This document shows positions 47,027 to 49,963 of a stretch of DNA of 64,000 nucleotides, piece after piece. The stretch comes from Escherichia coli. Its GTDB lineage: Bacteria > Pseudomonadota > Gammaproteobacteria > Enterobacterales > Enterobacteriaceae. Position numbers and translations under genes: made by a program. Every line of letters begins with the position of its first letter. Positions within the stretch are counted from its first letter, which is position 1. The stretch is from assembly GCF_016903815.1 (NCBI RefSeq), contig NZ_CP069973.1; one strand, 5' to 3'. The notes beneath the pieces are model-generated. The model saw only the letters and a program-made list of their open reading frames with translations, was not told the origin of the DNA and ran no database searches.

Positions 47027-47236
47027 TTACGGTGCTGTTTTAAGCCCCGCCGGGATTTCGTTATTGTCCATGTGAATAACTTTATCGACCGGATAACAGT
47101 TGCCGGGAATTTTCTGTTCCGCTGCGGCAGCCATGCATTCTTTCATTGAGTTGTACATGCCGGTGATTGCATCAAGCGACTCACCAGTATTGAGATGTAC
47201 AGTCAGAATGAGTACGAATAATGTGTTCATCGCCAC
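47027..47236 (-). CDS. Small membrane protein, YdfD-like by position (putative host-killing/lysis protein)
   Basis: 69-aa ORF with N-terminal hydrophobic segment, immediately downstream of the DicB-like gene as ydfD is in Qin; identity not verified. Confidence 0.45.
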   Translation of the reverse strand: MAMNTLFVLILTVHLNTGESLDAITGMYNSMKECMAAAAEQKIPGNCYPVDKVIHMDNNEIPAGLKTAP

Positions 47237-47415
47237 TCTCCGAAAATACCGAGTTTAAGAAGGGCAATTCTGGAGAGTATGGAATTGTCATTCAGCAGGT
47301 AGGGTTCATATTTTCTCATATTGATTGCATCCTCGGTGAAATCCCTGTTACTGAGCAGAACACCAATATTAAAGCACCCGTCAGACGTATTAACGTTTGG
47401 TAGTGACGTTTCCAT
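47227..47415 (-). CDS. dicB: DicB-like cell-division inhibitor
   Basis: 62 aa; LPNVNTSDGCFNIGVLLSN..FTEDAIN.RK closely matches recalled E. coli DicB. Confidence 0.75.
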   Translation of the reverse strand: METSLPNVNTSDGCFNIGVLLSNRDFTEDAINMRKYEPYLLNDNSILSRIALLKLGIFGEWR

Positions 47416-47425
47416 TATCGCGTCC

Positions 47426-47983
47426 TCAACAATGAATTTTTAGCAATTGCTCCACAGTCATATTTTTAATTGCGCTCCGGTTTACAAGAGTCCATCCTTG
47501 TTTCTCCAGATAAAACCGGAAGGTATCCAGGGTGCAGACCATTGCGCCGTCAGGAACGGTTTCAGTGAATTTGATATTGCCGTGTTCGTCGAGACGGATA
47601 ACCAGGGTGCGTCCGTCCCCGTGAATCATTTTGTCGGGAGACGGGGCGTTATTCTGGCGCAGTTCTTCCTCCATGCGATCGAACTCAGCGATGTAGGCTT
47701 CTTTGAAAGTTGCGGCTTTTTTACCTGTGAACCCCATCACCAGGAAAACGAAGCCGTTTTTGGTGATTTGGTACATGGGGCGTTTTTCGCCTTTGGCGTC
47801 GGTGTAGGTAACGGGCGTAAAATTGCGCTCGTTAAAATCTTCAGAGCATTCTAGCGTTTCAATTTTGCGCAGAACGTCCTTGTGCATTTTGCGGAAGAAC
47901 TCTGCAACCGCAACAGACGTAGTGACAGCGCGACCATTTTCGATGGTTACGTCAGGGTGAGAAAGGGTAGGGATAGTAGCCAT
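47426..47983 (-). CDS. rha: Rha-family phage regulatory protein
   Basis: Start at internal ATG with RBS gagg (MATIPTLSHPDVTIENGRAVTTSVAVAEFFRKMHKDVLRKIE); the ORF-track 5' extension crosses a terminator-like hairpin. Confidence 0.7.
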   Translation of the reverse strand: MATIPTLSHPDVTIENGRAVTTSVAVAEFFRKMHKDVLRKIETLECSEDFNERNFTPVTYTDAKGEKRPMYQITKNGFVFLVMGFTGKKAATFKEAYIAEFDRMEEELRQNNAPSPDKMIHGDGRTLVIRLDEHGNIKFTETVPDGAMVCTLDTFRFYLEKQGWTLVNRSAIKNMTVEQLLKIHC

Positions 47984-48463
47984 AATGGCAGCCTCTTGGT
48001 TGAGTATTAATAACTCACCACCAAGGTTTTCCACGACCATAAGGGTGGTGAGGCGTACAGGGGTGGAAATACCGGTCAACCAAGAATCCGGCCAGCCTTG
48101 CAGCTGCCCTGCACGCCCCACCATAATCTGAATGTGGCTGTGCTTGACGCATAAAAAAACCGCCTGAGCGCGGTTATGCGCTTGATTGAATTCCGGGTTT
48201 CCACGCCCGGCACCCGTTTTATGAGGTGCAGGTGCACTATAATTCCACCCGTTCTGGTTTTCAATAGCTACATTCAACATTTTCTCTTACCTTTCATCAC
48301 CGAAGTGAACTTTGTTGATGCGGTGCCTGGTGCCTCCAGGTGACGTTAACCAGTTAACAATTAACGCCGGATACAGAGAATCCACCCATAACACTGTTTT
48401 TGGTTTTAACTGTTCCGCGTGCGCTTAGCCGCATTCACCGCATCACAAAATTCACTTTAAAAA

Positions 48464-48515
48464 GGGTGGCAGAGCAGTCACGGAGTAGAACTGATGCCAC
48501 CAAAGACTACACATG
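48464..48515 (-). ncRNA. dicF: DicF-like small RNA
   Basis: Minus-strand ggtggcatcagttctactccgtgactgctctgccaccc plus U-tail matches recalled DicF 3' two-thirds at about 34 of 38 nt; 5' end approximate. Confidence 0.6.
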
Positions 48516-48810
48516 GGTATTGTGGCGGGGCTGTCACTTAAGCGTATGGTCAACCTGACAACCCGGTGCATTTTCTGGAGCAATGGAGGAAACCCCAGCC
48601 ATACTTACCGCCGCGCCATTTCGCGGATTGCCACAACCGGAAGCGCACGATCGAATTAAATTTAACGACGACCTATACAGAGAGACTAACTTCGCCGGGC
48701 GCTTTCGTGTTATGCCCTGACTTTTCAGGGATATATCCTTTTTAGTAAACTGTCAGTGCCGGATTCTTATCCGTGTCCGGCGCACGCACTCTACCTCACC
48801 TGTGAATAAA

Positions 48811-49197
48811 TTAATGATTAATTGATATTTTGTTGTTTGATTCAACTTTCCCATCGGATGTGTGATGCTTTAAATCACAGGAATTAATACTGCTCGCTGT
48901 AAAATGATTTTCAAGGGGAGCTATTCGAATCCCTTTCTTTTTCATTAACAAGCCAAATCCTTTATTAATGATGTCCATTAATTCCAGGAAGTATTTTTCA
49001 TGTAAATCCTGGTTATCAGAGAGCTGCTTCTCTTCGTACAGACCGATAAAGGCACGACGCACGTTACCGGATATAGTATCGATGGTTTCTTTTTCTACGG
49101 TACTCAGGTCAAGAGTCGCCAGTTGAGAGCGAACCACATTCGATGCCATTTCCTGGAATGGTACTGGTAAATCTTTAAATTCCATCGTCAACCTCAT
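48811..49197 (-). CDS. Hypothetical protein, early-left operon
   Basis: 128-aa ORF whose start overlaps the stop of the upstream small gene; 3' half markedly AT-rich; no recognised motif. Confidence 0.55.
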   Translation of the reverse strand: MRLTMEFKDLPVPFQEMASNVVRSQLATLDLSTVEKETIDTISGNVRRAFIGLYEEKQLSDNQDLHEKYFLELMDIINKGFGLLMKKKGIRIAPLENHFTASSINSCDLKHHTSDGKVESNNKISINH

Positions 49198-49349
49198 CAG
49201 TCAGTGTTTCTGGTTAACCAGCGACGCGCGCCAGCTTCAGTTTGAAACGTTTTGCTTCTGGTATACGTCATCGCGGTAAACGTGCCGTCCTGGTTGGGAA
49301 ACACGCCGCATACCAGAGATTCGTTGTTGCCAAGATCGATAGTATCCAT
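49197..49349 (-). CDS. YdfA-like small protein
   Basis: Start placed at internal MDTIDLGNNESLV...TAMTYTRSKTF, which resembles recalled Qin YdfA; the ORF-track start at 49403 is also possible. Confidence 0.5.
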   Translation of the reverse strand: MDTIDLGNNESLVCGVFPNQDGTFTAMTYTRSKTFQTEAGARRWLTRNTD

Positions 49350-49403: not shown

Positions 49404-49555
49404 CGTGCGGTGTCTTGATGAGTAGAATTTAGAATAACCTAAGAATTATGGTCAAGCTTTTTGTGTAGAAAAACCTAAGTTTTTTGATGTAAAAAACACA
49501 AGCATTTGAAAGTTTGTGCTTTTTATTACAGAGAGTGGCGAAAAAAAAGGGAGGT
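49404..49555 (-). promoter_or_regulatory. Early-left promoter/operator region (PdicB analogue)
   Basis: 152-bp AT-rich gap with repeated aacctaag and ttgatg/ttgtgtag motifs. Confidence 0.4.
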
Positions 49556-49963
49556 TTATTTATTTGCGCTTCTTTTGCGAGCTTTGAGTAGTTCTTCAAA
49601 AAGTTTGTTGAAATTCTCAACTCGAGCACGCATCTCTGACAACAGAGCCTTTTGCTCTGACTCAGGCAGTGCGTCGAACAGTTGAAGCAACTCTTTTTGA
49701 TCTTCTGTCAGATTAACTGGCTGATTATCTGGGATCGGTTCGCCTGGTTGCTTATCTTCATCTCCAAAAAGAAGCCAAGTCGGCGAGCACTGAAGCGCCT
49801 GGCTCAGTGCGAATAATCTCTTCCCCGCTGGCTGTGTTTCATCTCTTTCCCATTGAGAAATTGTTACGTGAGCCACTTTGACCAGCTTACCTAATGCGGC
49901 CTGAGACAGTTTTAATTTTTTACGCCTGTATAAGAGGCGAGCACCGAAGGTTTCGTTTTTCAT
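49556..49963 (-). CDS. dicA: DicA-type HTH (XRE) prophage repressor
   Basis: 135 aa; LSQAALGKLVKVAHVTISQWERDETQPAGKRLFALSQALQCSPTWLLFGDEDKQP and MRARVENFNKLFEELLKARKR closely match recalled DicA. Confidence 0.85.
   Translation of the reverse strand: MKNETFGARLLYRRKKLKLSQAALGKLVKVAHVTISQWERDETQPAGKRLFALSQALQCSPTWLLFGDEDKQPGEPIPDNQPVNLTEDQKELLQLFDALPESEQKALLSEMRARVENFNKLFEELLKARKRSANK

Follow-up and report, generated by a model that had tools for sequence, protein, structure and literature searches.

The stretch of Escherichia coli DNA analysed here (contig NZ_CP069973.1 of assembly GCF_016903815.1; 64,000 nt, hereafter the window) contains a dicBF-type early-left operon of a Qin-like lambdoid prophage, and within this operon a small gene to which the literature searched assigns no function. 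On the minus strand, a gene for a DicA-like helix-turn-helix (HTH) repressor is followed by a promoter-like site, ydfA, the gene in question, about 300 nt of non-coding DNA and the small RNA DicF, and then by an isrK/C4-RNA and Rha-family module, dicB, a DUF1482 gene and a gene for a RecE-type exonuclease. Cro-like, YdaT-like and replication O/P-like genes occupy the divergent plus strand. The small gene at 48811-49185 is a genuine protein-coding gene and a mosaic of two modules joined at about codon 53, both of which are under purifying selection; of this description of the gene and its mosaic structure as a whole we are very confident. Its elements are as follows.

48811..49185, minus strand: coding sequence (CDS) of a protein of 124 amino acids (aa), MEFKDLP...ISINH, with stop TAA at 48811-48813; most likely the true extent of the gene
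49027..49185, minus strand: N-terminal module, codons 1-53, the "MEFKDLP" helical hairpin, 44.7% GC (from profiles, AlphaFold2 and alignments)
48811..49026, minus strand: C-terminal module, codons 54-124 plus stop, 32.9% GC (from composition, distribution and AlphaFold2)
49192..49195, minus strand: Shine-Dalgarno GAGG, 6 nt 5' of the ATG at 49185 (read from the sequence)
49195..49197, minus strand: upstream in-frame ATG of a 128-aa version, sharing its A with the ydfA stop TGA at 49197-49199; probably not the start
48779..48800, minus strand: conserved box GGTGAGGTAGAGTGCGTGCGCC, 10 nt after the stop, the right-hand cassette boundary at which Qin homology resumes into the DicF precursor

A scan of viral contigs in IMG/VR yielded 80 related loci of the 124-aa type with 82-100% identity, and the open reading frame (ORF) was intact in all 80. 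Every one of 33 distinct alleles was 372 nt long, with neither indels nor stops, despite synonymous divergence (dS) of up to 0.75. The ratio of nonsynonymous to synonymous divergence (omega, dN/dS) was 0.14 for codons 1-53, 0.25 for codons 54-94 and 0.22 for codons 95-124, and 0.23 overall, as pooled by the Nei-Gojobori method from 171 pairs more than 8% diverged, pairs that are non-independent and in which recombination was ignored; ratios for individual pairs agreed with the pooled values. With the frame intact in 80 of 80 loci and dN/dS at about 0.14-0.25 throughout, the gene is functional and coding, and the frameshifted remnant without a conserved frame that the first-pass annotation of this DNA had kept in view is ruled out. 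The exact protein is found on at least 1000 contigs, and hundreds of E. coli genomes have an annotated protein that is the same or nearly so (WP_000394557.1 / WP_000394532.1). Residues 5-128 of the 128-aa ORF match phrog_6937 end to end (profile positions 1-124 of 124; E=1.5e-76, 255 bits). The window gene belongs to this family, already catalogued as a RefSeq hypothetical protein and with no described function, no Pfam or NCBIfam model and no structure. A full-length homologue of known function, which would have changed the picture, did not emerge, all full-length homologues being without one.

The same annotation had pointed to a composite base composition and suggested a fused or recently acquired segment. 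The composition shift is real: in the 124-aa frame, nucleotides 1-159 have a GC content of 44.7% (43% at third codon positions, GC3) versus 32.9% (GC3 35%) for nucleotides 160-375, with a window mean of 50.2%. By GC content, the 3' half of the gene falls within the lowest 0.7% of all 190-nt segments of the window, and the best single change point in composition lies at nucleotide 177 of the frame. All alleles of this C-terminal module have 31-37% GC, and alternative C-terminal modules 40-47%. The composition step coincides with a recombination junction at codon 53. Breakpoints were obtained by pairwise DNA comparison with related prophages, alternative alleles being sampled locus by locus and not exhaustively, and they vary with the allele compared (L numbers denote prophage loci).

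133-aa allele (L005): identity 93-100% to nucleotide ~150, then 33-63%; break at codon ~53
PPompW allele (L013): identity high before a break at nucleotide ~130-150
ECOR29 allele (L006): identity high before a break directly after codon 7
106-aa alleles (L003, L010): identity high before a break at codon ~100-106
L008: identity high, with homology lost only past the stop

Across 33 unique alleles, dS increases along the gene from 0.21 (codons 1-53) through 0.38 (codons 54-94) to 0.75 (codons 95-124). Such a gradient is expected if recombination has repeatedly homogenised the 5' part, the 3' parts having older and separate histories. Together with the break in homology to the 133-aa allele, it upholds the notion of a fused or acquired segment, in the sense that the two halves have separate histories. 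An antisense gene or promoter in the AT-rich half was also considered and rejected, as this half holds only a 52-aa ORF on the plus strand and a weak promoter-like match (9/12), and relatives give no support.

The ATG-initiated ORF of 128 aa at 48811..49197 (minus strand) is present in the ORF listing as initially described, but the proposal that its start overlaps the stop of the preceding gene, with coupled translation, is disfavoured by the evidence. The true start is most likely the second ATG, at 49185, which gives 124 rather than 128 aa and follows the stop of the co-directional ydfA after a gap of 11 nt. The NCBI Prokaryotic Genome Annotation Pipeline (PGAP) places the start of the CDS there in a 100%-identical locus (124 aa, WP_000394557.1), every matching PHROG profile starts at residue 5 of the 128-aa version, and the GAGG Shine-Dalgarno is kept whether ydfA or ydfC lies upstream, as it is in distant homologues. 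In the four loci examined with ydfC or IS1 upstream (L002, L003, L007, L013), GAGG-N6/7-ATGGAATTT is retained, and the frame, closed by a stop 6 codons upstream, offers no other ATG. Translation of a 128-aa protein from 49197, by termination-reinitiation at the TGATG overlap with ydfA, would make use of an ATG that is in frame and has one base in common with the ydfA stop, in an arrangement kept wherever ydfA is the upstream gene. Yet this ATG is missing from the ydfC/IS1 contexts, the GAGG spacing suits the second ATG, and the four additional N-terminal residues occur in no homologue, so that we consider coupling of this kind very improbable. Since PGAP, the PHROG profiles, the GAGG spacing and the ydfC/IS1 contexts all favour 49185, the TGATG overlap is an incidental by-product of the ydfA stop context.

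The N-terminal module recurs in proteins with other C-termini. Four further PHROG families (phrog_1363, phrog_2151, phrog_9419 and phrog_33007) match the protein at its N-terminus only, over the first 51-64 residues. An exhaustive HMMER profile search of 1.84 billion representatives gave 54 clusters at 50% identity, for which the match, a few fragments aside, was confined to profile positions 1 to ~50-65; in 48 of these 54 clusters the N-terminal module is joined to unrelated C-termini, with lengths of 31-208 aa. Several alternative C-termini form PHROG families of their own. Sister families include the 133-aa type (WP_001339605.1), the 135-aa type of PPompW and phage Evi, and the 147-aa type of Stx phages (VT2phi_272, PA2). 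They resemble the window gene in the first ~50-60 residues (MEFKDLP..Q..A....F..LY), in the two helices and in operon position, but differ in C-terminal halves that are unrelated in sequence, of variable length, and of 40-47% GC compared to 33% here; all are annotated as of unknown function. Family alignments identify L6, P7, Q11, A14 and F46 as invariant and M1, K4, D5, L49 and Y50 as near-invariant, and the window protein has all of these residues. In the distant member L017, MEFKDLP is encoded by different codons (TTC, CTC, CCC). This indicates constraint at the protein level and contradicts a purely nucleotide-level origin of the N-terminal conservation.

The genomic position of the module is similarly conserved. 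A repressor-proximal place in the leftward early operon was found in the window and in L002-L017, including the most diverged members, in which the gene directly follows the repressor gene (L015) or a DUF1391 gene (L016) or lies within the repressor-proximal block (L017); in Stx phages, the MEFKDLP gene is located in the early-left block of recombination genes. One database protein of 149 aa (P0163) has a YdfC-like N-terminal part fused in frame to the MEFKDLP module (residues 91-142). Loss of the ydfC stop probably gave rise to this fusion, which is consistent with a gene order of ydfC followed by the MEFKDLP gene.

The C-terminal module consists of a hydrophobic helix at residues ~60-83, a core at residues 64-101, a variable tail predicted to be disordered, and a conserved ISINH end. 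In the protein alignment, the invariant core residues are K64, Y65, F66, L67, L69, M70, D71, I72, I73, G76, G78, L79, L80, M81, K84, G85, I86, R87, P90, N93, F95, I100 and N101, whereas residues ~102-119 are variable and the C-terminal ISINH is again conserved. The exhaustive HMMER search of 1.84 billion representatives detected no relatives of this module beyond its own family. Likewise, tblastn against 50,697 phage records found no full-length copies, all hits being to residues 1-59 only; the records with the N-terminal module alone comprise PPompW prophage records, phage Evi and Stx phages. The C-terminal module is present in 735 of 5,426 complete E. coli genomes (~13%), nearly full-length in 543 of them. 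A 751-nt query covering ydfA and the ORF matched 3,863 of the 5,426 genomes, at 80% or more of its length in only 462; most matches, in a spread sample of hits, were over ydfA only.

Qin of E. coli K-12 lacks the gene and carries ydfB/ydfC in the equivalent place, as the first-pass annotation had noted. The implication that the gene stands in for ydfB/ydfC did not survive. In prophages of O157:H7 and others the order is ydfA-ydfB-ydfC-this gene-DicF-dicB, and this coexistence identifies the gene as an extra cassette rather than a substitute. BLASTP gave no alignment with K-12 YdfB (42 aa) and only E=1.6 over 14 residues with K-12 YdfC (72 aa), so that a homologue of either was rejected for lack of sequence similarity. 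The likeness is thus restricted to small size, unknown function and a location between ydfA and DicF of the same operon. In the 80 IMG/VR loci, the gene follows ydfA in 56 and ydfC in 24, and the conserved box lies 10 nt past its stop in 66. In K-12 Qin, ydfC is followed directly by the conserved box GGTGAGGTGGAGTGCGTGCGCC; in the window, the box begins 10 nt past the stop of the 124-aa gene. Copies of IS1 were encountered directly upstream of the gene in L007 (1756-2453, separating ydfC from the start) and within the gene in L011 (1664-2361), where the insertion truncates it at about codon 89.

AlphaFold2 models predict a short N-terminal turn, a helix at residues 8-23, a second helix from residue 32 and a disordered tail. 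The mean predicted local distance difference test score (pLDDT) was 56.6 with 13 close homologues and 73 with 55 sequences including trimmed N-terminal modules, the gain being for the N-terminal module only. In the latter run, residues 1-50 had a pLDDT of 87-92 and residues 51-90 one of 68-79, and most of the tail from residue ~97 scored below 50. Residues 64-81 are very hydrophobic, and must therefore be shielded, either by packing against the hairpin or within an oligomer. Inspection of the sequence shows neither a signal peptide nor a membrane segment.

Searches for domains and folds provided few clues. The best Pfam match of the protein had an independent E-value of 0.04, and none of 23 variants had a match at E≤0.001; NCBIfam gave 0 matching families, and in PADLOC-DB 2.0 the 124-aa protein matched no defence model at E≤1. 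A sequence profile search of the PDB had as its best match CSF-1 (E=0.095), judged to be due to chance, and the AlphaFold2 model had no significant structural match to solved structures or viral models. No enzymatic, HTH or other nucleic-acid-binding domain was detected in these domain searches, the 23 variants included. From residue counts, the protein is slightly acidic and has no arginine-rich motif of the N type, and an N-like antiterminator was rejected on these grounds.

The neighbouring features that bear on expression of the gene are the following.

49556-49963, minus strand: gene for the DicA-like HTH repressor (ORF listing, PGAP)
49426..49455, minus strand: sigma-70-like promoter TTGACC-18-TAAATT between the repressor gene and ydfA (consensus scan, pattern match)
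49197..49349, minus strand: ydfA (DUF1391, 50 aa), the first gene of the operon here (PGAP; phrog_751, E=4.5e-35)
48464..48515, minus strand: DicF small RNA, downstream in the same operon (Rfam RF00039, 61.1 bits, gathering score 48)

The DUF1391 annotation and the RF00039 match confirm the initial placement of the gene between a YdfA-like gene and a DicF-like RNA. In K-12, the counterpart operon ydfA-ydfB-ydfC-dicF-dicB-ydfD is transcribed from a promoter repressed by DicA/DicC, and a terminator at DicF must be passed for dicB expression (PMC5069750); the same source treats ydfA, ydfB and ydfC as unknown and does not mention the 124-aa gene. The site at 49426..49455 is presumed, from its sequence and location, to be the DicA-repressed early-left (dicBF) promoter. 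A consensus scan of the minus strand from the repressor gene to the end of the ORF revealed no second promoter-like site, and a pattern scan found nothing resembling a terminator at the two ends of the ORF. As the gene has no separate promoter-like site, it is probably expressed only upon release of the DicA-type repressor, together with DicF and DicB. Compared with phage "morons", the gene thus has no promoter or terminator of its own according to pattern scans, but it does display clean-boundary presence/absence (K-12 Qin being without it) and a deviant GC content (33% vs 50%).

Other parts of the operon are variable as well. C4 antisense RNA (RF01695, 78 bits) and isrK RNA (RF01394, 69 bits) were identified in the 48041-48229 region (minus strand), inside the 5' third of a 284-aa "Rha family" ORF annotated by PGAP at 47426-48280 (minus strand). 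Matches of this ORF to Rha/antirepressor-type profiles start only at residue ~111 which, together with the location of the RNAs, indicates that the start of the long Rha ORF is probably over-called. The region looks like an antirepressor module of the P1 immI type (c4-icd-ant) or the Salmonella isrK-anrP type, inserted between DicF and dicB; K-12 Qin is without this isrK/C4/Rha module. Between DicF and the Rha module lies an 84-nt pseudogene fragment ("DicB, incomplete" in PGAP) at 48311-48394 (minus strand; L001:5057-5140), and an intact dicB is found past the Rha gene at 47227-47415. The fragment and the intact copy together suggest that the Rha/isrK/C4 module entered where DicF and dicB meet and left a short duplication or remnant. 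At the other end of the operon, some related prophages (L009:428-906, L011:428-906, L016:2899-3563) have pairs of type II toxin-antitoxin genes (RelB/RelE-ParE; HigB with an HTH partner) in the interval from the repressor gene to ydfA, and this site is another variable slot flanking the start of the operon.

In ten loci (L003, L005, L006, L008, L009, L010, L013, L014, L015 and L016), a small gene on the opposite strand abuts or overlaps the 3' end of the MEFKDLP gene. Those with coordinates, all on the strand opposite to the MEFKDLP gene and convergent with it, are listed below.

L003:3394-3669, opposite strand: convergent gene
L005:3064-3342, opposite strand: convergent gene
L006:3093-3293, opposite strand: convergent gene
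L008:1795-2241, opposite strand: convergent gene
L009:1706-1927, opposite strand: convergent gene
L010:1640-2077, opposite strand: convergent gene
L013:3386-3619, opposite strand: convergent gene
L015:4271-4507, opposite strand: convergent gene
L016:4628-4837, opposite strand: convergent gene

These genes encode proteins of 66-148 aa of several unrelated types, all of "unknown function" in PHROG, and they have the appearance of cassettes that are expressed independently and share, upstream of DicF, a hypervariable slot. The window has no convergent gene at this 3' end. The same allele type occurs with the same convergent partner in the pairs L003/L010 and L013/L014. Alleles of the 124-aa type have no partner at 94% identity or more, a 148-aa protein with two possible transmembrane segments at 85% (six loci), and a 73-aa protein at 84% (one locus). 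The gene for the 148-aa protein (phrog_6315; minus strand in L008) also occurs in L088-L090 and L095-L097, beside an allele of ~85% identity. The two hydrophobic segments of the protein are possibly transmembrane as judged from the sequence, and it weakly matches the SLATT effector in a PADLOC DRT model (E=0.002); it is a candidate prophage-borne defence or abortive-infection effector.

DicF acts on ftsZ mRNA and on metabolism, and DicB on division and phage receptors. The product of the 124-aa gene would be made on prophage derepression together with these two host-directed factors, as a small soluble helical protein with a disordered tail that would most likely act stoichiometrically by binding another protein. 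Action by protein binding is suggested by the small size and helical character of the product, and by the lack of a catalytic or DNA-binding signature and of a visible membrane segment. The invariant N-terminal module could then form the fold and self-associate, or dock onto a conserved partner, and the exchangeable C-terminal module, with its helix at residues 60-83, variable tail and ISINH end, could provide target specificity. The diversity of C-terminal modules favours a role that is accessory and related to conflict over one in core regulation. The host-takeover or exclusion function raised in the first-pass annotation is plausible from the context of the gene. We tentatively infer that the protein is an accessory factor in host takeover or in inter-phage or anti-defence conflict and not a core phage function, a proposal to which we give somewhat less than an even chance. 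Several observations weigh against it. The two AlphaFold2 runs differ, the second helix breaking at residues 54-60 with 13 sequences and running to residue 83 with 55, and residues 55-95 score no better than 68-79. As the promoter scans recognise a consensus only, an internal or lysogen-active promoter could exist. Module swapping can be a by-product of adjacent cassette insertions instead of selection for specificity, weak constraint alone could explain the variable tail, and the dN/dS values were pooled from non-independent pairs by the Nei-Gojobori method.

Two kinds of known systems are instructive for comparison. DicB, Kil/KilR and the lambda proteins cIII, Ral and Gam are short, mostly helical, non-enzymatic products of repressor-controlled leftward operons which bind host proteins. 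The window gene is like them in having a short helical product and a place in such an operon, and across the loci compared dicB and kilR genes are found a few genes downstream; it differs in that no similarity in sequence or fold to any solved structure or viral model was detected, and a conserved N-terminus with variable C-termini is not part of their architecture. That architecture is known from the CdiA-CT/Rhs polymorphic toxins and from the internal proteins of phage T4, which share an N-terminal targeting sequence: a conserved N-terminal part carries hypervariable C-terminal cargo. The MEFKDLP genes have in common with these an invariant N-terminus, C-termini exchanged by recombination and, often, a small variable gene adjacent. 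Here, however, there is no secretion or packaging context and there are no toxin or immunity domains, and the neighbouring gene is convergent instead of co-directional and is absent from the window, so that the resemblance is architectural only.

It is tempting to speculate that MEFKDLP genes form a polymorphic effector system, in which the N-terminal module, as a domain for docking or oligomerisation, would deliver exchangeable C-terminal modules against targets of the host or of rival phages on derepression. We hold this to be rather unlikely, and equally so that many alleles would be paired with a cognate convergent gene that the lysogen expresses. If true, it would describe an arms-race locus beside the immunity region, present in as many as ~70% of complete E. 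coli genomes, this figure being the share that matches the query of ydfA plus ORF, mostly over ydfA only. In a more specific form, in which C-terminal modules would be toxic or inhibitory, the convergent gene would be a neutraliser made in the lysogen, and the window copy would be an orphan without its partner, the idea appears improbable. The union of one conserved N-terminus with many unrelated C-termini, the convergent small gene in the ten loci, the recurrent allele-partner combinations in L003/L010 and L013/L014, and the association of 124-aa-type lineages with different partner states (none, 148 aa or 73 aa) all speak for it. Nevertheless, the exchangeable C-terminal regions come without an adjacent cognate partner or a toxin domain in the window and in 66 of the 80 loci, where the box 10 nt past the stop leaves no room for a partner and purifying selection acts all the same. 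One type of C-terminal module occurs with three partner states, which linkage by descent fits better than cognate pairing, and neither the 23 variants nor the partners have a toxin, immunity or defence domain other than the weak SLATT-like match (E=0.002).

A function internal to the phage would be suited to a gene that is the first or second after the repressor gene across diverged prophages. It could concern the immunity switch (DicA/DicC or Rha/antirepressor) or the way in which its own operon is expressed or processed, such as read-through into dicB past the terminator at DicF (PMC5069750). The protein has no HTH or other nucleic-acid-binding domain and, being slightly acidic, no arginine-rich motif of the N type; moreover, neither its absence from K-12 Qin nor the many unrelated C-termini would be expected of a housekeeping regulator, and we regard such a role as unlikely. 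Alternatively, the protein could be an inert passenger, consisting of an ancestral N-terminal part and whatever the frame reads into after insertion of neighbouring cassettes, and hitch-hiking in mostly defective prophages. This is compatible with breakpoints inside the ORF, with cassettes that shorten it to 106-110 aa, with IS1 insertions adjacent to or within the gene, with many frameshifted or fused variants in the protein database (P0050, P0062, P0064, P0068, P0074), and with the absence of the C-terminal module from the 50,697 phage records searched. A passenger would not, however, account for an omega of 0.22-0.25 in the C-terminal module including its tail, for 33 alleles free of indels at dS up to 0.75 and 80 of 80 intact frames, or for a strongly conserved core at residues 64-101 and a conserved ISINH end, and appears quite improbable. 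An accessory factor acting in host takeover or in conflict between phages and defences remains the reading that we prefer, on the tentative terms given above.

On present evidence, this is an ordinary accessory gene of a mosaic lambdoid prophage, and the slot defined by a conserved N-terminus and variable C-termini, although a useful lead, will not surprise a phage genomicist. The dicBF operon is nonetheless among the best-known examples of cryptic-prophage genes that act on the host, and its other small genes are without an assigned function; one of these small genes proves to be a modular protein maintained by selection. Its N-terminal domain marks a fixed, hypervariable slot by the immunity region in many enterobacterial prophages, and the natural domain swaps found in this slot are available for testing what it serves, with host takeover, counter-defence or exclusion as candidates.

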